Shown piece by piece: positions 9,962 to 31,800 of a stretch of DNA of 32,823 bases. How positions within the stretch are numbered: position 1 is the first letter of the stretch; every line of letters starts with the position of its first letter. The notes beneath the pieces were generated by a model. The model saw only the letters and a list, made by a program, of their open reading frames with translations. It was not told where the DNA came from and ran no database searches. Position numbers and translations under genes: made by a program. The DNA is taken from the NCBI GenBank assembly GCA_012274205.1, contig JAAOZY010000130.1, positions 1 to 32,823 of the forward strand. Direction: 5' to 3'. Source of the stretch: Betaproteobacteria bacterium (GTDB lineage: Bacteria > Pseudomonadota > Gammaproteobacteria > Burkholderiales > SG8-39).

Positions 9962-10002
9962 GCCGCGGCCGCGTACTTCCGCGCTGCCGCGCATCGCGCC
10001 GA

Positions 10003-10112
10003 GAACCCGTTGCAAAAATGAAATTTTGCAACGCCCAATATAGGGGAGTATGAGGGGAGGTCCCCCAGGGGGACTTCCTTTGGGGCGTATCCCCTCATTT
10101 TGCAACGGACTC
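10003..10112 (+). mobile_element. ~110 bp MITE-like repeat, copy 1
   Basis: Imperfect terminal inverted repeats GAACCCGTTGCAAAA ... TTTTGCAACGGACTC; near-identical to 12443-12551. Confidence 0.8.
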
Positions 10113-10127
10113 CAAGGAGACTGAAAC

Positions 10128-10886
10128 ATGAGTTCACACAACAGAGTTGCCATCGTCACCGGCGCCGGCACCGGCATCGGCAAGAGCGCCGCGCTGGCGC
10201 TGCTTAAGGACGGCTATCGTGTCGGGCTGGTCGGCCGGCGCCGGGAATTGCTCGAACGCACGGCGCAGGACGCCGGACCGGCGTCGCCAAATACGCTGGT
10301 GCTGCCGGCCGACATCGGCAAACCCGAGTCCGTCAAGGCACTGTTCGCGCAGGTGCGCGAAACCTGGGGCCGGCTGGACCTGCTGTTCAACAATGCGGGC
10401 ATGGGCGCGCCGGCGATCCCGATGGAGGAGCTCAGCTTCGAGCAGTGGAAGGCGGTGGTCGACGTCAACCTCAGCGGCATGTTCCTGTGCTCGCAGGAGG
10501 CGATAAAGATCATGAAGAGCCAGGATCCGCGCGGCGGGCGCATCATCAACAACGGTTCGATATCGGCGCATGCGCCGCGGCCGAATTCGGCGCCCTACAC
10601 CGCCACCAAGCACGCCGTCACCGGCCTCACCAAATGCATCTCGCTCGATTGCCGCAAGTATGACATCGCCTGCGGCCAGATCGACATCGGCAATGCCGCC
10701 ACCGAGATGACCGAGCGCATGAAGAACGGCGTGGCCCAGGCCAACGGCACGACCGCGGTCGAACCGCGCATGGATGTGGCGCATGTCGGCAGCGCCGTGC
10801 TCTACATGGCCAATCTGCCGCTGGATGCCAATGTGCAGTTCATGACCATCATGGCGACAAAGATGCCCTTCGTGGGGCGCGGTTGA
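10128..10886 (+). CDS. Short-chain dehydrogenase/reductase (SDR)
   Basis: [12 protein letters not shown], catalytic YTATK; AAGGAG RBS. Confidence 0.95.
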
Positions 10887-11527: not shown

Positions 11528-12442
11528 ATGTCACGCCAATCAGCAACGCTCGCGATACTGTTCGCCGACATCAGCGGCAGCACCAGGTTGTATGAAGCCC
11601 TGGGGAACAGCCGCGCGCGCCACATGGTGGTGCGCTGCCTTGCGCTGATGACCGACACCCTCAATGCGCACCGGGGCACGCTGATCAAGACCATAGGCGA
11701 CGAGATCATGTGCACCTTTCCCAGCGCGGATGCCGCATTGCGCGCCGCCTGCAATATGCAGGAAGCGGTGGAACGCGGGCGGCCCGGCGGCGAGACGCCG
11801 ACGTATGTGCGCGTCGGATTCAGCTACGGCGAGGTGCTGCGCGAAGGCAAGGACGTGCACGGCGACGTGGTCAACGTGGCGGCGCGGATTACCGAAGTTG
11901 CGCGCGCGCGCCAGATTCTCGCGACGCACTCCGCGGTCGACGCGCTGTCGGCGCAGCTGCGCGACCGGGCGCAGCATGTCCGCAGGGCGAGCATCAAGGG
12001 CAGGCAGGCGCAGCTCGATCTGTTCCAGATTGCATGGCGTGCGGAAGCCGGTTCGGACACGCGCATCGGCAACCCGGCCGACCGCAAGCCCGAGGGCCTG
12101 GAGGAGCAGCTCGTCCTGCGCCATGGCGATCATCAGGTCACGCTGAGCGAGCGCAATACCACGGCGACCCTCGGCTCCGGCGCAGGCTGCTCCATCGTGG
12201 TGCGGGACGACCTGGCCTCCGCCCTGCATGCAACGGTGGAATATCAGCTGGGGAAATTCTTCGTCTCGGACCACAGCGCCAATGGAACCTACGTGCATTT
12301 CAGCGGCGGCGAGGGCGTGCGCCTGGTCGGCAACGAAACCCTGCTGCGCGGTTCGGGCGCAATCGTGCTGGGACGGCCCTTGTCCGGCGGTTCCGCAAAA
12401 ATCATCGGCTTCGCGGTACACCTGACCCCGACCGCCGGCTAG
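11528..12442 (+). CDS. Class III adenylate/guanylate cyclase with C-terminal FHA-like domain
   Basis: ILFADISGST, IKTIGDEIM, GDVVNVAARI, IKG; FHA-like SALH ... SANGTYV. Confidence 0.9.
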   Translation: MSRQSATLAILFADISGSTRLYEALGNSRARHMVVRCLALMTDTLNAHRGTLIKTIGDEIMCTFPSADAALRAACNMQEAVERGRPGGETPTYVRVGFSYGEVLREGKDVHGDVVNVAARITEVARARQILATHSAVDALSAQLRDRAQHVRRASIKGRQAQLDLFQIAWRAEAGSDTRIGNPADRKPEGLEEQLVLRHGDHQVTLSERNTTATLGSGAGCSIVVRDDLASALHATVEYQLGKFFVSDHSANGTYVHFSGGEGVRLVGNETLLRGSGAIVLGRPLSGGSAKIIGFAVHLTPTAG

Positions 12443-12551
12443 GAATCCGTTGCGAAATGAAATTTTGCAACGGCTGATATAGGGGAGTATGAGGGGAGGT
12501 CCCCCAAGGGGACTTCCTTCGGGGCGTATCCCCTCATGATGCAACAGACTC
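12443..12551 (+). mobile_element. ~110 bp MITE-like repeat, copy 2
   Basis: GAATCCGTTGCGAAA ... GATGCAACAGACTC; abuts the TAG stop at 12440-12442; lies between convergent genes. Confidence 0.8.
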
Positions 12552-12570
12552 TGACGCGCACAGGCACGCC

Positions 12571-14235
<1,665 letters not shown>

Positions 14236-26582: not shown

Positions 26583-26969
26583 TCAATACCCCTGCCGGAA
26601 CAAGTACGCCAGCAGCGCGGCACCGAAACCCGCTACCGTGAGGTTCATGAACACCGACATGTTCACCCAGTAGCCCGCGGGGATTTCAATCGGCTTCAGC
26701 GTTTTGAGGACGGTCCTGAACTGCAGCGCGGCAGCCACCGACAGCGATGCGCCGAGCAATATGAATATCAGGCCGATCCAGAACGACATCCCCGTTTCCG
26801 GAATGGGCTTGCCGCTGGGGGTGATCCCGCCTGGGGCGATCATATGCAGAAACAGGCCGAAGCGCTCCACGGCGAAACCGAAAGCCATCAGCGTCAGGCA
26901 GGTACGGTTCCAGGCGAGCAGCGTGCGCTCGGCCGCAAAGAACACCCGCGGATCGTTCAAATCTGACAT
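26583..26969 (-). CDS. DUF202/YidH family membrane protein
   Basis: DPRVFFAAERTLLAWNRT plus three TM helices. Confidence 0.9.
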   Translation of the reverse strand: MSDLNDPRVFFAAERTLLAWNRTCLTLMAFGFAVERFGLFLHMIAPGGITPSGKPIPETGMSFWIGLIFILLGASLSVAAALQFRTVLKTLKPIEIPAGYWVNMSVFMNLTVAGFGAALLAYLFRQGY

Positions 26970-26993
26970 GGTCCGTTTCCTGTTTTGTAGTTG

Positions 26994-27101
26994 GAGTTCA
27001 TTTCAAAACGAGGGAATATCCCATGTGGGGACTTCCTTCGGGGCGCATCCCCTCATTCTCCCCTAGATCAGAGGCCATTTCAGTAATTCTGAAATGGCAT
27101 C
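26994..27101 (-). mobile_element. ~110 bp MITE-like repeat, copy 3 (divergent; flanks reversed, internal cassette not reversed)
   Basis: Reverse complement reads GATGCCATTTCAG...CTGATCTAGGGGAGAATGAGGGGA...TTTTGAAATGAACTC. TTG lies on both sides (possible 3-bp target duplication). Confidence 0.75.
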
Positions 27102-27112
27102 TTGGATAAGGC

Positions 27113-28663
27113 TCAGGCCTTCACCGGCGCGGCGGCATCCGCGGCTTTCGGCGCGCGCAGCTTGCCCAGCCCGCTGCGGATGGCGGCTTCCACCGTCTCG
27201 ACGCTGTTGTTGAGCGCGAGGCTCTTCGCGTACACCTTCTTCTCCTCGACGTTGGCGAGGCGGCTGATGAGCACGCGCTGCGCCTGCGGCGAGCCGGCGC
27301 CGTGCATGGACTCGGTGAGATAAGCTACCGCCCCGCGCCCCATGGTGAGGTTCTCGATCAGGCGCAGCAGGCGCATGCGCTCGTAAGTACTCATGCCGGC
27401 CGCGCCGGCGAGGTATTTCTTCAATATCCCCGCGGTCTGCGGATTGAGCCAGTCCTTCGCCGAGGGCAGCGTCACCATCAGGCCGCCGGCAATGTCCTGC
27501 AGGATGCGCGCGATCTCATAGGGCAGGCGCGTCACGTTCTGCTTGCACACGTTGGCGAGCAGCGCGTCGACGAAGAAATTGCCAGCTGGCAGCTTCCTGC
27601 CATTGGCCGAGCAGGCGATGCCGCAGGCAAACAGCGTTTCGTTGAGATGGTTCATCTCGACGATTTTATCCTTGATGTGCGATGCCCTGGCCACGCCGTT
27701 GTATTCGGCGATGGACGCGGCAGCGCCTATGGCCACGTCGCCGTTGCCGACTTTGCAGCCGCCGTAGCTCTGGCGGTGGTAACTCGCGAAAACGTCCACC
27801 AGCGGCGCGGCAAACTCGGTCTCGCCGTTCATGAAGATCATGGCGTCGGGCACGAACACGTCGTCGAAGATCATCAGCGCTTCCTGGCCGCCGTAGGTCG
27901 GGCTGCCGGCATCGATGTCGGAGGCTTCGCCGCCGCCGAGCTTGCGCTCGTCGCAGGACTGGCGCCCGTAGATGTAGGTGATGCCTTCGGAGTCCGACGG
28001 CAGTGCACAGGTGATGGCGTAGTCCTTCTCGTCCGGCTTCAGCGACACGGTCGGCATCACCAGCACCATGTGCGAATTCACCGAACCGGTCTGGTGCGCC
28101 TTGGCGCCGCGGATGAGGACGCCGCCCGGGCGCCGCTCGACCACGCGCAGGTACATATCCTTGTCCTGCTGCTCCGCCGGGCGCTTCGCGCGATCGCCTT
28201 TGACGTCGGTCATGGCACCGTCGACGATCCAGTCGTTCTGCTCCATGGCAAGGGCGAACTGCCTGAAGCGGGCGTGGTATTGCGTGCCGAGTTTGCGGTC
28301 CATGTCGAAGGTGGTGGCGAACACGGCGTTCAGCGCATCCAGGCCGACGCAGCGCTGGAAGCAGGTGCCGCAGCGCTGCCCGAGCAGGCGCTGCATGCGC
28401 ACCTTGTTGATCAGATCCTCAGTGCTCTGGTGCAGATGGCAGAAACGGTTGACGGTCGCACCGGTCAGCGCGGATTTCGCCGTCATCAGCTGACGGTGCT
28501 CGGGGTCATGCGCCAGTTCGTAGGTCAGGGCCACGGTATTCATCGAGGTCCGGATATACGGATGCTCAAGCGGATTGGCGAGCAGCTTGCCGTCCAGATA
28601 GACCTTGAGCGGCTTGCGCCGCGCGAGGCTGTCGCGGTACTGTTGTGCGTTCATCATGGCCAT
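27113..28663 (-). CDS. abfD: 4-hydroxybutyryl-CoA dehydratase / vinylacetyl-CoA isomerase (AbfD type; FAD, [4Fe-4S])
   Basis: NRFCHLHQS, TCFQRCVGLD, GAMTDVKGDR, GAKAHQTG, YHRQSYGGCKVG, HLNETLFACG, TESMHGAGSPQAQR; GGAGG RBS before ATG 28663. Confidence 0.88.
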   Translation of the reverse strand: MAMMNAQQYRDSLARRKPLKVYLDGKLLANPLEHPYIRTSMNTVALTYELAHDPEHRQLMTAKSALTGATVNRFCHLHQSTEDLINKVRMQRLLGQRCGTCFQRCVGLDALNAVFATTFDMDRKLGTQYHARFRQFALAMEQNDWIVDGAMTDVKGDRAKRPAEQQDKDMYLRVVERRPGGVLIRGAKAHQTGSVNSHMVLVMPTVSLKPDEKDYAITCALPSDSEGITYIYGRQSCDERKLGGGEASDIDAGSPTYGGQEALMIFDDVFVPDAMIFMNGETEFAAPLVDVFASYHRQSYGGCKVGNGDVAIGAAASIAEYNGVARASHIKDKIVEMNHLNETLFACGIACSANGRKLPAGNFFVDALLANVCKQNVTRLPYEIARILQDIAGGLMVTLPSAKDWLNPQTAGILKKYLAGAAGMSTYERMRLLRLIENLTMGRGAVAYLTESMHGAGSPQAQRVLISRLANVEEKKVYAKSLALNNSVETVEAAIRSGLGKLRAPKAADAAAPVKA

Positions 28664-28731
28664 GGCGATCCCTCCGGTTGGCTGCGCCAGCGTACTGGGC
28701 GCAGCCGGGCCGCGGCTGCGCTGCTGCAGGC

Positions 28732-28773
28732 AGTCTAAGCCCGGGCTAAAGCAGGCTATTTGACCTAAGACAA
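28732..28773 (-). promoter_or_regulatory. FNR/CRP-family class II promoter for abfD
   Basis: TTGAC-CTAA-GACAA at 28760-28773 and a minus-strand TAGACT -10 at 28737-28732. The box centre falls at -41.5 if the -10 occupies -12 to -7. Confidence 0.65.
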
Positions 28774-28883
28774 TATGCGGCGCCTTGAGCCCGGCGCGGC
28801 GGCGGTGTGTATCATTGGTACTGTGGGCGGGTGCCAACCCGGGACGCAACGCCGTTGGTGACGCGGGTATTCGGAACAAAGCG

Positions 28884-31800
28884 ATGAAGCGCAGGCCGCA
28901 GGAAACGGGGCAGAAACCGGCGTACAAGGCCGATGCGCATGGCGCGGGTGCGCCGCCCGCCGGCGCGGCAGCGCCCGTCTACACGGGCGACTCCGGCCTG
29001 CGCAGCGTATTCGAACAATCGCCCGACCCGGCCTGGATCATCGACGGCCATCATTTCGTCGAAGCCAATGCGGCTGCCCGGGCCGCCATCGGCTATACCG
29101 ACAAGGCCGAATTCCTGCGCCTGCACCCGTCCCAAATTTCGCCCGAACTGCAGCCCGACGGCGAGTCCTCCTACCTCAAGGCCGAGCGCCACATGCGCAC
29201 CGCGGAGGGGCAGGGGGTGCACCGCTTCGAATGGGTGCACCGCCGCAGCGACGGGACGCCGTTTCCGGTCGAGGTGACCCTGGCGGCAATCGACCTGCAC
29301 GGCCGCCAGGCGCTGTATTGCATCTGGCGCGACATCACCGAACGCAAGCGCGCGGACCAGCTGTTGCGCCTGGAGCATGCGGTCGCGCGCCAGCTTGCCG
29401 ATGCCGACAGCGCAAGCGCCGGCCTGAAGGCGGTGATCCGCACCGTGTGCGAAACGCAGGACTGGGCGCGCGGCACCTACTGGCGCGTCGACACGGCCGC
29501 GGACGTACTGCGCTTCAGCGAGTTCTGGAACGTTCCCGGTACCGAATTCGAGCGCTACACCGAGCGTTCGCGCGACATGGTGTTCAAGCGCGGCGCCGGA
29601 TTGGTGGGCCGGGCATGGCAGTCGGCCGAACCGCTGTGGGCCGCGGATCTGGTCAATGATCCGCGCGTGCTGGTAAAGGCGCTGGCGCAGGAGACCAGCG
29701 TGCGCGGCATGTTCGTTTTTCCCGTGCTCTCGGATGGAACGGTGATCGGCGTGCTGGTCTTCGCCAGCCGCGAAGTGCGCCAGCCCGACACGCGCCTGCT
29801 GGCGGCGGCGCAGGTCATCGGCAGCCAGGTCGGACAGTTCCTGCAGCGCAAGCAGGCGGAAGAGGCGCTGCGCACCAGCGAAGCGCGCTATCGCGCGCTC
29901 ACCGAGCTATCGTCCGACTGGTATTGGGAACAGGACGAAAACCTGCGTTTCACGCGCATATCGCGGCAAACCCTGGGGCACGAGGATATCGGGGGGAGCA
30001 TCTTCCTCGGACACACGCGCCGCAGTGCGCCGGGCGTGCGCTGGGACGAGATGGAACTGGCGGCGCTGGAGGTGATCACGGCGTCGAGGCGGCCGTTCCG
30101 CGATTTCGAGATCGGCCGCAGCTACCTCGGCGGCCCGAAATATTACGTGCAGATGAACGGCGAACCCGTGTTCGACCAAAGCGGGCGCTTCGCCGGTTAT
30201 CGCGGCATCGGCAAGGACGTTACCGAGCGCAAGCGCCGCGACGAGGGGCTGCGCATTTTCCGCGCGGCGATGAACGCCACCGCAGACGGCATTTATCTGG
30301 TCGACCGCTCGAGCATGCGCTTCATCGATGTCAACGAAGCGGCATGCCGCATGCAGGGGCGCACGCGCGAGGAAGTGCTCGCCCTCGGCCCGCACGAGGT
30401 GCTGTCGCTATCGCGCGAGGAATTAGAGCGCAGTTACGACGAGTTCATCGCCAGCGGCAGCGGCACCCAGCGCTTTGAGCTGCTGCGTCCGCGCAAAAAC
30501 GGCGCGCACGCCTGGGTCGAGCTGGAGCGCAGCGCCCAGCGCTGGGGCGACAGCTGGATGATCGTCACCGTGGTGCGCGACATCAGCGCGCACAAACGCG
30601 CGGAGCAGACCATACGGCATCGCAGCGCGCAGCAAAGCCTGATTGCGAGCTTCGGCCAGCAGGCGCTGGCCAGCGCTCACCTCGACGACCTGCTGGCGCG
30701 CGCGGTCGCAGTCGTCACCGAAGGTGTGGACGCAGGCTGGTGCAGGATCCTGCTGCTCACGCCCGACCGGCGCACGCTGGTGCTCAAGGCCGGCAGCGGC
30801 TGGGAGCCGGGCTGGATCGAGCGGACGTTCGAGGCGGTCGATGCAAACACCCAGGACCGCTACGTACTCGACGCCGGCGAGCCGGTGGTGGTCGAGGATT
30901 TCGCGCGCGAATCCCGTTTCGCCGCGTCGGCGATGCTCGCCGCGCACGCCCTCGGCAGCGGCATCGATGTCCCGATCGGCGCTGCCGACGGGCGGATCGG
31001 GATCCTGGGGGCGTATGCGCGCGAACCGCGCCGCTTCAGCAGTGACAGCATCGACTTTCTGCGCAGCGTTGCCAACATCATTCAGACCGCGGTCGAGCGC
31101 AAGGCGGTCGAGGACAAACTCGCCTATCTGGCGCAGTTCGACAGCGTCACCGGACTGCCGAACCGCAGCCTGTTTCTCGATCGCCTTTCCCAGATGCTGA
31201 CGCAGGCGCAGCGCAACGGCTGGCTCGCGGGCGTCGTTTTCGTCGACCTTGATCGCTTCAAGGCGGTCAACGACACCTACGGCCACAGCGTCGGCGACAG
31301 CCTGCTGCGCCTGGTCGCGCAGCGGCTGACCGAGAGCGTGCGCGCCGGGGACAGCGTCGGCCGCCTGGGCGGGGACGAATTCGCCATTGCGCTGTCGTCG
31401 CTGGGCAAGGCCGACGACGCCAGCCTGGTGGCGCAAAAGGTGGTCGAAGCGCTGGCGCGCCCGTTCGATCTGGCCGAGCACGCGATCTACGCCACCGCGA
31501 GCCTGGGGGTCGCGATCTATCCGGGCGACGGCACCGATGCCGATACACTGCTGAAAAACGCCGACATCGCCATGTATCGCGCCAAGGAACACGGCCGCAA
31601 CGCCTACCAGTTCTACCTGCCGCAAATGAACGAGCGCGCGGAAAAGCGCATGCGCCTGGAAGCACAGCTGCGCGGCGCGCTCGAGCGCGGGGAGTTCCTG
31701 CTGCACTACCAGGCCAAGGCGGACCTTCGCAGCGGAGCGATCAGCGGCTTCGAGGCGCTGCTGCGCTGGCGCCATCCCGAACGCGGGTTGGTGCAGCCGC

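Follow-up and report, generated by a model that had tools for sequence, protein, structure and literature searches.

The 32,823-nt stretch of DNA analysed here (hereafter the window) corresponds to contig C239 (JAAOZY010000130.1) of a betaproteobacterial draft genome, GCA_012274205.1, which comprises 3.86 Mb in 490 contigs and is estimated as 87% complete with 7% contamination. It holds three copies, all of them intergenic, of a repeat of about 85 nt belonging to a family that resembles miniature inverted-repeat transposable elements (MITEs) and is present in approximately 190 copies in this 3.9-Mb draft. In each of the three copies a hairpin loop of this host repeat accommodates a short insert, designated below as E27, which was probably acquired as a separate mobile unit (Table 1). 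Copies 1 and 2 share 97 nt with 92% identity (family D3) and on the plus strand read ATGAGGGGA-GGT-[CCCCCARGGGGACTTCCTTYGGGGC]-GTA-TCCCCTCAT, where inner brackets enclose the core of the insert. The flanks of copy 3 are the reverse complement of these (CTGATCTAGGGGAGAATGAGGGGA...TTCCCTCGT if the minus strand is read), yet its core, CCCATGTGGGGACTTCCTTCGGGGC at 27020-27044, reads on the plus strand, that is, against its host. The 18-mer GGGGACTTCCTTYGGGGC has three matches in the window, all on the plus strand, with 0 expected from 100 shuffles, while the left-flank motif of the host is found on the plus strand at 10042 and 12481 and on the minus strand at 27064. Since the core is an imperfect palindrome, its two orientations share, by hand count, about 15 of 25 positions; the same-strand match of 21/25 including the exact 18-mer still clearly assigns all three cores to one strand. 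The loop between the 9-nt arms measures 31 nt in copies 1, 2, and 3 alike, just as reported in the first-pass annotation, which had drawn attention to the opposite directions of flanks and core and explained them either by a nested mini-element or by inversion. Logan contigs from the sequencing runs X1 and X2 (2913 and 1189 nt), representing a single sample that is probably the source one, span copy 3 with 0 differences, so that its arrangement is not peculiar to one assembler, although minor orientation variants are invisible in such a contig-level view. The flipped core of copy 3 is confirmed as real.

E27 comprises 27 nt, T-CCCCCAAGGGGACTTCCTTCGGGGC-G, i.e., the 25-nt core preceded by T and followed by G. 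It can fold either into a pair of small hairpins or into a single imperfect palindrome, CCCCCAAGG-GGACTT-CCTTCGGGG, with 9-nt arms and a 6-nt loop, and contains no stop codon in any of six frames, one of which reads APKEVPLG; in copy 3, the first hairpin departs from the consensus CCCCCAA at four of seven bases. Five comparisons of filled and empty sites all give a difference of 27 nt (or of 48 nt for the longer form described below). In the host loop, the insertion point lies between bases 3 and 4 of six (AGG^TAT). The left-end hairpin of a Burkholderia insertion sequence (IS), which has a TnpB-like open reading frame (ORF) starting with MILVYRYRVKS and which we take to be a member of the IS605 family, is empty in L168-L170 (CCCGCCAT-TG-ATGGCGGG) and filled in L161-L165 and L188 (CCCGCCAT-T[TCCCCC...GGGGCG]G-ATGGCGGG, or CAT-T[T..G]G-ATG), with slightly diverged filled forms in L166 and L167. 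Only one placement fits this site, implying that the unit is T+25+G and enters without duplication. Filled copies of this IS occupy several different loci in several species, thus it still moved while carrying E27 in its 2-nt hairpin loop, and, as far as these copies allow judging, a 27-nt addition at the hairpin tip seems not to stop its transposition. The third comparison concerns the gene purL of Paraburkholderia, where the site reads TTCA^TCGGC. Of 31 genomes, 29 have it empty (TTCATCGGC or TACGTCGGC), one carries a single copy of E27 and another carries two; its absence from 29 of 31 makes presence the derived state there. The purL frames of 1404 and 1379 amino acids (P. tuberum and P. 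fungorum) contain two and one in-frame copies, respectively, of the segment PQGDFLRGV just before the GATase_5 domain, and both keep all five FGAR-amidotransferase domains. The last two comparisons come from the source genome: hairpins CATTCCGA..GAGGAATC enclose 7, 8, or 11 nt in five copies and 34 (=7+27) or 59 (=11+48) nt in two others, and in the family GGGGG..CCCCCTTG-TA-AATCCCCC the inner part is 1-3 nt long in six copies and 29 nt in one. The length of 27 nt supposed in the first-pass annotation is thereby upheld together with the expectation that the unit may sit in frame within genes as a 9-residue insertion relative to orthologues; its delimitation as the core plus one GT had to be abandoned, since T+core+G fits the Burkholderia IS and purL sites better.

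Within the source genome, the host family was collected by scanning for the left flank AGGGGAGYRYGAGGGG with up to two mismatches (217 matches), and a stricter parse that additionally demanded the right stem retained 198 hosts. In the latter set, the loop is 6 nt long in 116 hosts and otherwise takes the values of 33, 54, and 75 nt, equal to 6+27, 6+27+21, and 6+27+21+21, with few tandem forms of 59 and 108 nt. In the larger set, 124 hosts are empty, same-direction inserts of 27, 48, and 69 nt occur in 21 (plus 2 degenerate), 19, and 6 hosts, and 17 hosts are classified by the script as flipped (15 with 27 nt, one with 48, and one with 69). The remaining class of 26 matches is mostly composed of chance ones, although C16, C198:12982, and C426 appear by eye to be flipped too. 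Both orientations are thus common, and the empty hairpin ATGAGGGGA-GGTA-TCCCCTCAT, which had been predicted from the window alone, turned out to be the commonest genomic form: the most frequent 6-nt loops are AGGTAT (24, counted in hosts with a loop of at most 8 nt), AGTTAT (13), and AGATAT (8). By the 5' hairpin the hosts fall into subtypes T1, T2, and T3 (GTTGCAAAAT.., GTAACAAAAG.., and GCCATTTCAG.., respectively), with which the 3' tail and the stem pair (AT/AT versus CG/CG) covary, and each subtype includes empty, same-direction, and flipped members. Per subfamily, the terminal arm, internal 5' hairpin, 3' tail, and stem pair change jointly (ATGAGGGG..CCCCTCAT versus ACGAGGGG..CCCCTCGT), and CTAAG/TTAG-like words bracket most host copies. 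A tree of host arms was built from 160 of the 217 matches, leaving out those of unclear subtype, of the unassigned class, near contig ends, or with the right stem not found. On this tree, the subtype label requires six changes versus 69.3 after shuffling, while the loop state requires 49, as against 50.1 for shuffles made inside each subtype, of which 104 out of 300 were equal or better. Such a scatter of loop states reflects either many gains and losses, or conversion through shared stems, or too weak a signal.

The longer inserts disclose further layers of the same design. A 21-nt hairpin unit, E21 (TCCCGTCRAGCGGGAYCGAGR), resides in the loop of the long hairpin of E27: the 48-nt form is E27 plus TCCCGTCRAGCGGGATCGAGA, uniquely placed between GGGGACTT and CCTTCGGGGC at the 3' edge of this loop, and in the 69-nt form a second copy, TCCCGTCGAGCGGGACCGAGG, lies between TCCCGTC and GAGCGGGA of the first E21. 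The resulting a-a-b-b layout implies insertion into a loop, not tandem duplication. Of 38 genomic matches to the 21-mer, 24 are in E27, 10 are nested in E21 inside E27, and one (C74) is in a variant E21, while the remaining three are chance-like, with three mismatches and in unrelated sequence. In other genomes, L027 and L103 carry E21 variants with the stem changed on both sides (TCCCC..GGGGA). The host, E27, E21, and the E21-like copy form four nested layers.

Occurrence of the core outside the host element, expected for an independent unit, is observed both in the source genome and far beyond it. The former contains 81 well-formed units, 47 of 27 nt, 23 of 48, 9 of 69, and 2 odd, among which there are six adjacent direct pairs and, within 300 bp, 0 inverted ones. 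At least six settings are represented by some 12 units found away from the host: two hairpins resembling repetitive extragenic palindromic (REP) sequences on C257, a terminator-like hairpin on C90, sites on C89, C203/C431, C348 (two copies), and C405, and the GGGGG..CCCCC family on C66, C293, C387, and C43. A search for the exact 25-mer in other genomes, one per species, returned at least 123 loci, and the figures given below for taxonomy, junctions, and flanks apply to the loci listed. Their record labels indicate Betaproteobacteria (at least 94), Lysobacterales (at least 17), Desulfobulbales (at least 4), Enterobacterales (at least 3), Haliangiales (at least 2), Hyphomicrobiales (at least 1), and unplaced records (at least 2); carriers from the minor groups are metagenome-assembled genomes (MAGs) and may be mis-binned. 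Flanks are unrelated between these loci, and 120 sites divide into 105 single units and 15 tandem arrays. In G121:C73:3514-3646, C118:19-124, and L089 (Burkholderia sp. LMG 32019), four to six 27-nt units follow one another head to tail, some in degenerate form, so the unit behaves also as a minisatellite. In an even order-wide sample of 200 genomes, each at least 90% complete, 14 carry E27 at up to two mismatches, the control with reversed pattern giving 0. Variants proper to single genomes, with TGCG or TACG replacing TTCG, fit amplification within genomes. Cultured carriers include Pseudoxanthomonas yeongjuensis DSM 18204 (44 copies at up to two mismatches) and Sulfurisoma sediminicola BSN1 (21), and each of the genomes G041-G044 has merely 3-8 exact-match copies. 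E27 is also held by six plasmid records of Burkholderia/Paraburkholderia, four of them conjugative, in unannotated spacers near IS genes in the contexts H1 and H3; phage records gave no match to E27.

Several of these loci deserve separate mention. In L023, L024, and L111 (betaproteobacterial MAGs), E27 occupies an identical position within an IS91-like zinc-finger region (..LVAFSC^..RRGFCPSCGARRM), and by hand translation the downstream frame is off by one base relative to the motif, so that either the gene is broken or the site differs by one base. In L038 and L052 (Burkholderia/Paraburkholderia), E27 appears by eye to lie in a different frame, PPGGLPSGR, inside a large repeat-rich adhesin-like gene (..GTLTIAPGN^..ASALNNASGTI..). 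In seven Lysobacterales loci (L002, L004, L039, L041, L095, L106, and L110), E27 abuts, at G^TAG, the GTAG tag of a separate REP hairpin, GTAG being the motif thought to be read by systems of REP-associated tyrosine transposases (RAYTs).

In the loci listed, the core is followed by G in 123 of 123 cases, preceded by a pyrimidine in 120, and has G at position -2 in 88. The two flanking dinucleotides agree in 70 of 123 loci versus 44.4 expected from margins (GT..GT 49, GC..GC 21, mixed pairs 16; Fisher p = 3.5e-8), and the combination AT..GT is met 13 times. The unit has CCCC and GGGG at its ends, and the matched G-Y, frequent as it is, is not seen in flipped hosts or at the Burkholderia IS site. 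These counts point to a tendency, not a rule, for the target to share 1-2 nt with the joined ends of the unit (CG^TC). Perfect flanking stems of at least 7 bp occur at 14 of 120 sites as compared to 1.1% with permuted flank partners. Hairpin tips are favoured in the source genome, and this preference is much weaker in other genomes; the first impression that nearly all sites are hairpin loops was not upheld (14/120 by stems and 11/120 by folding).

As a candidate mobiliser, the first-pass annotation had named a RAYT or another TnpA(Y1)-like protein, which we reject. The sole Y1_Tnp match of the source genome (87% complete) is a 250-amino-acid ORF on C115 flanked by inverted repeats of the GGGGACAGACCAC type, not by E27. 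This Y1 (HUH) transposase-like gene, located at C115:12470-12805 (L001 1114-1866, minus strand), lies between inverted repeats that can also be described as GGGGACAGACCACAGTTTCCCC-type, and both notations fit the GGGGWSAS motif ascribed to the 'TIRYT' class in PMC3733652. Across the order-wide sample, the tallies of which include the unpublished genome G093, Y1_Tnp is found in 10 of 14 E27-positive genomes versus 130 of 200 overall, so there is no co-occurrence, and four carriers of E27-like copies (G029, G133, G193, and G221) gave no Y1_Tnp match.

The host repeat has a history of its own. At the site of copy 3, the relatives G022, G018, and G010 have only few bases where the window has about 116-129, the whole host being missing (the empty site of G022 reads GTTGAAC), and the contig of a relative in run X4 skips 125 bases at this point. 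Among congener loci having both anchors, the host is absent from 19 of 19 at the site of copy 1 and from 3 of 3 (L138, L145, and L160) at the site of copy 2. The host displays the features of MITEs, i.e., empty orthologous sites, a 5' arm and a 3' tail that are complementary and covary in three subtypes, and TTGGA on both sides of copy 3, which, though taken from one locus, is likely a target duplication of the host. As judged from these site comparisons, the host repeat is itself a mobile insertion.

The reversed state of E27 in copy 3 might be attributed to an in situ micro-inversion, in which the loop was turned over through recombination of the 9-bp stem arms or through template switching between them. 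Small inversions in hairpin loops of plastid DNA arise in this way, and here too inverted repeats bound a loop of the same 31 nt in all three copies. A flip of the whole loop would convert AGG-E27-TAT into ATA-rcE27-CCT, whereas all 17 flipped copies keep host triplets: AGA (7), AGG (3), ATG (3), AGT, ATA, ACG, and AAA on the 5' side and TAT (13) or TTT (4), never NCT, on the 3' side. The polarity of the host loop (5' A-N-N, 3' T[AT]T) is thus preserved in 17/17, meaning that E27 alone is reversed, and by our own reading no listed empty loop has the inverted polarity (T at position 2 and C at position 5). A flip between the arms of E27, in turn, would retain the C.C mismatch, while flipped units are the full reverse complement of 27 nt, CCCCGAAGG...CCTTGGGGG, with CG shifted to the 5' side and G.G replacing C.C. 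Taking into account that it leaves solo, intragenic, and tandem copies unexplained, we regard inversion, the second option of the first-pass annotation, as extremely unlikely. The probability that copy 3 is a mere assembly chimera of reads from both orientations is practically negligible: repeats are indeed hard to assemble and the draft is fragmented and partly contaminated, but the X1/X2 contigs cross the locus without differences, 16 further flipped copies exist in the source genome, and the flipped junction class GAGGGGATA-TCCCCC is present in many congeners. For the latter, each junction pattern was found in 21 of 22, with ATA and AGG triplets beside the stem separating the classes; as the stem is symmetric, the junction pattern alone does not assign orientation, and these figures are not per-genome counts. 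One may also assume that E27 is ancestral to the host and that 6-nt loops result from its precise deletion by slippage or nuclease at the tip, especially as palindrome tips are deletion hot spots and paralogues alone give no direction of change. Against this, empty hosts outnumber filled ones approximately 2:1 and are met in every subtype, the same 27 nt are present or absent in four unrelated settings, including purL with its 29 of 31 empty genomes, and the 69-nt form, self-nested as a-a-b-b, has the layout produced by insertion rather than by deletion or tandem duplication, all of which renders an ancestral E27 very improbable.

More weight should be given to the assumption that only two insertions founded the filled hosts, one per direction, and that these then spread by transposition of filled hosts or by gene conversion, in which case most filled hosts, possibly copy 3 among them, never received E27 themselves. 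The host is mobile, as follows from the sites in G022, G018, G010, and run X4 where the whole element is lacking; flipped copies share junctions (AGA-CG seven times); the CGA variant of the first hairpin is found in flipped and solo copies and not in same-direction ones; and the stems together with the AGGGGAG motif are nearly identical across subtypes, so that short conversion tracts are possible. Yet filled hosts are not clustered on the tree of host arms (49 versus 50.1 changes), although clustering would be predicted by simple copying, if not by conversion; seven different 5' triplets occur among 17 flipped copies; and the founders, like each copy located outside the host, still call for true insertion. 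This scenario appears to us a tangible possibility, albeit not the one we favour. Considerably lower we rate a process with no dedicated enzyme, in which template switching copies the unit into tips of stalled hairpins using 1-2 nt of G-Y microhomology. It agrees with the excess of matched G-Y direct repeats (70/123 versus 44.4 expected), with exceptions showing less identity (13 loci with AT..GT, and TT..GG at the Burkholderia IS), with the existence of tandem arrays, with the enrichment of strong flanking stems, and with the lack of a mover among the Y1 proteins tested. It leaves unexplained why the donor is always the same 27-mer, even in G041-G044 with their 3-8 exact copies, and why its exact sequence is retained across classes; besides, we know of no established route for ectopic template switching over long distances on 1-2 nt of identity. 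Altogether this makes it improbable.

We therefore consider it probable that E27 belongs among mobile insertions that are neither coding nor autonomous, of the kind represented by REPs and Rickettsia palindromic elements (RPEs), distinct from its MITE-like host, and that copy 3 carries it in reversed direction rather than owing to local inversion. The idea of a nested mini-element, put forward as the first option in the first-pass annotation, gains support from empty hosts, quantised loop lengths, cores outside the host, in-frame copies in purL, and both orientations; the boundaries of E27, its empty sites, its solo, tandem, and intragenic copies, and its wide taxonomic spread have all been documented above. 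Several points weigh against this interpretation. The mobility of E27 is deduced from comparison of sequences, and movement has never been directly observed. No orthologous host copy was found both with and without E27 at the sites of copies 1, 2, and 3 in relatives, and since relatives lack the whole host at the sites of copies 1 and 3, the filled host could have come there as one piece. The lack of clustering on the tree may result from nothing more than the weakness of the signal that some 93 nt provide inside a subtype. E21 was never met outside E27 or E21 in the source genome (38 matches), so it is at most a putative mobile unit. The model of dinucleotide duplication fails in 53 of the 123 loci and at the Burkholderia IS site (TT..GG), folding energy falls below the 5th percentile of controls at just 11 of 120 sites, and at least eight crossing pairs are formed in 36% of sites as compared to 27% of controls. 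No mover emerged from the tests of the Y1/RAYT link in the source genome and the 200-genome sample. Finally, a replication-strand bias is not significant, with 11 of 16 units on the leading strand of one contig (p ~0.2, our own two-sided binomial estimate), where the strand was assigned by the sign change of GC skew near 760-800 kb of contig C11 in G302.

If E27 is mobile, it would enter DNA as a whole, in either direction, without long target duplication and very often at the tip of a hairpin, being copied from existing copies by some trans-acting activity able to read the structure of the unit. Joining could proceed where the target matches the joined ends (...GGGGCG^TCCCCC...) in one or two bases (G-Y), and could be carried out either by a recombinase with dinucleotide crossover or, at stalled hairpins, by microhomology-guided template switching. 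Within the host family, partial spread might be provided by transposition of filled hosts or by gene conversion through identical stems, and such composite spread or conversion may contribute at individual host copies. A more ambitious version considers E27 as a 27-nt micro-transposon moved in trans by an activity conserved across Beta- and Gammaproteobacteria, which recognises the palindrome and pastes it via G-Y crossover (CG^TC) preferentially into hairpin tips, E21 following the same route into the loop of E27 and hairpins growing in successive layers, so that both would constitute a new class of loop-invading elements distinct from RAYT-REP systems; we put this forward tentatively and deem it rather unlikely.

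REP/RPE-like palindromic repeats are the closest known kind, although E27 falls outside the definitions of both GTAG-REPs with their doublets (REPINs) and CGTC families 1-4. With REPs and REPINs it shares short length (20-40 nt), GC-rich palindromic structure, tens of copies, and mostly intergenic, sometimes intragenic location, in accordance with 81 units of an imperfect palindrome with 9-nt arms. According to PMC3733652, REPs also occur inside genes, in three species they lie within palindromes, loop variants have self-complementary inner parts, and REP families are partly species-specific and partly shared. Unlike them, E27 has an exact 25-mer common across classes, its ends (T...CG) bear no GTAG tag, which in the loci listed appears only where the unit abuts a separate REP of Lysobacterales, and, in contrast to REPINs, it forms no inverted doublets (0 within 300 bp for 81 units), direct pairs and tandem arrays being found instead. 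In contrast to RAYT-REP systems, E27 neither flanks the Y1 gene of the genome nor co-occurs with Y1_Tnp. PMC3733652 further describes REPs tagged with CGTC (CGTC-1 to 4, including Rickettsia RPE-4/6 and Neisseria dRS3), which lack a transposase and are found inside genes; their stems measure 8-9 bp and open with A-T pairs, their loops comprise 4-5 nt, and their tail reads CCA. E27 resembles them in the absence of a dedicated transposase, in intragenic copies, and in that joined ends and tandem junctions read CG^TC; it differs from families 1-4 by the mismatched stem CCCCCAAGG/CCTTCGGGG, the 6-nt loop, the absence of a CCA tail, and CGTC arising only across joined ends. With RPEs it has in common the palindromic structure and the in-frame location in protein genes without breaking them (purL). 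RPEs are about 100-150 nt long and restricted to Rickettsia, while E27 measures 27 nt, is open in six frames, and inhabits Beta- and Gammaproteobacteria.

Tiny hairpin units are otherwise familiar from organelles, where they are GC-rich, thought to be mobile, and insert into spacers and genes with specificity for AT context. No sequence is shared between them and E27. Mitochondrial GC clusters, double-hairpin elements, and repetitive hairpin-forming elements are examples (PMC4478555, PMC2800124). In mosaic repeats, represented in Neisseria by those mentioned in PMC3733652, modules stand side by side, in contrast to the loop-in-loop modules of E27 with quantised lengths and an empty form for each layer. 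The 2-nt crossover of IS607-family serine transposases and other dinucleotide-crossover recombinases would leave a matched flanking dinucleotide. E27 complies with this in its GT..GT and GC..GC loci, unlike the 53 of 123 without a match, and its 27-nt substrate is far shorter than the known ends of such elements, with no gene of this type tied to it. BIME, RIME, NIME, and BOX are modular repeats as well, combining small palindromes with other modules. Mini elements derived from IS200/IS605, known as palindrome-associated transposable elements (PATEs), give no target duplication and insert 3' of a fixed tetra- or pentanucleotide; no fixed 4-mer precedes E27, the left bases being AGG, ATA, CATT, TTCA, GCG, and CCA. 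Rfam searches at the gathering score detected no RNA family in the window or in 18 related loci, and under permissive settings (copies 1 and 3, E up to 1) yielded only hits well under threshold, RAGATH-25 with 17.6 bits versus the cut-off of 49 and IhtA with 24.4 versus 76. No paper was found for the 18-mer or its complement or for six peptides of 8-9 residues in a search that stopped short of subscription journals and about 1.7 million unindexed PMC items, and searches by concept retrieved only PMC3733652 and the organellar analogues, with no bacterial counterpart of tiny hairpin units.

Provided that E27 moves, it would set the lower size limit for a bacterial mobile unit, being the smallest one known to us, and would point to an activity directed at hairpin tips that many proteobacteria of soil and water share, while its cultured carriers make the movement directly testable. 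Growth by the loop-in-loop principle offers a concrete route to modular structured repeats, and essential proteins such as PurL acquire 9-residue in-frame segments in this way too. In genomic practice, E27 breaks assemblies, mimics inversions, and can pass for a regulatory RNA motif.

Table 1. Repeat-associated features of the window.
Feature	Position	Strand	Remarks
Host repeat copy 1	10001..10117, ends approximate	+	subtype T1, 5' hairpin GTTGCAAAAAT-GAA-ATTTTGCAAC
E27 unit, copy 1	10061..10087	+	same direction as host (class A27), variant CCCCCAGGGGG...CCTTTGGGGC
Host repeat copy 2	12441..12556, ends approximate	+	subtype T1
E27 unit, copy 2	12500..12526	+	consensus form TCCCCCAAGGGGACTTCCTTCGGGGCG, same direction as host
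Host repeat copy 3	26996..27100	-	subtype T3, 5' hairpin GCCATTTCAG..CTGAAATGGC, MITE-like
E27 unit, copy 3	27019..27045	+	TCCCATGTGGGGACTTCCTTCGGGGCG; host on -, hence flipped (row C239 27064 -, class B~27)
TTGGA flank of host copy 3	26991..26995 and 27102..27106		likely 5-bp target duplication

As for the genomic neighbourhood, copy 1 of the host lies upstream of a gene of the SDR family (10128-10886), copy 2 is positioned between a cyclase/FHA gene ending at 12442 and an ABC-F gene (12571-14235, minus strand), and copy 3 is placed between a DUF202 gene (26583-26969, minus strand) and an HpaB-like gene (27113-28927, minus strand). For these three copies only, the orientation of the host matches transcription of the upstream gene. 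Apart from that, the window contains at 592-677 a terminator-like hairpin, CCCCGCGAGAAGCGGGGCTTTCTTT, in three tandem copies 30-31 nt apart (family D13).

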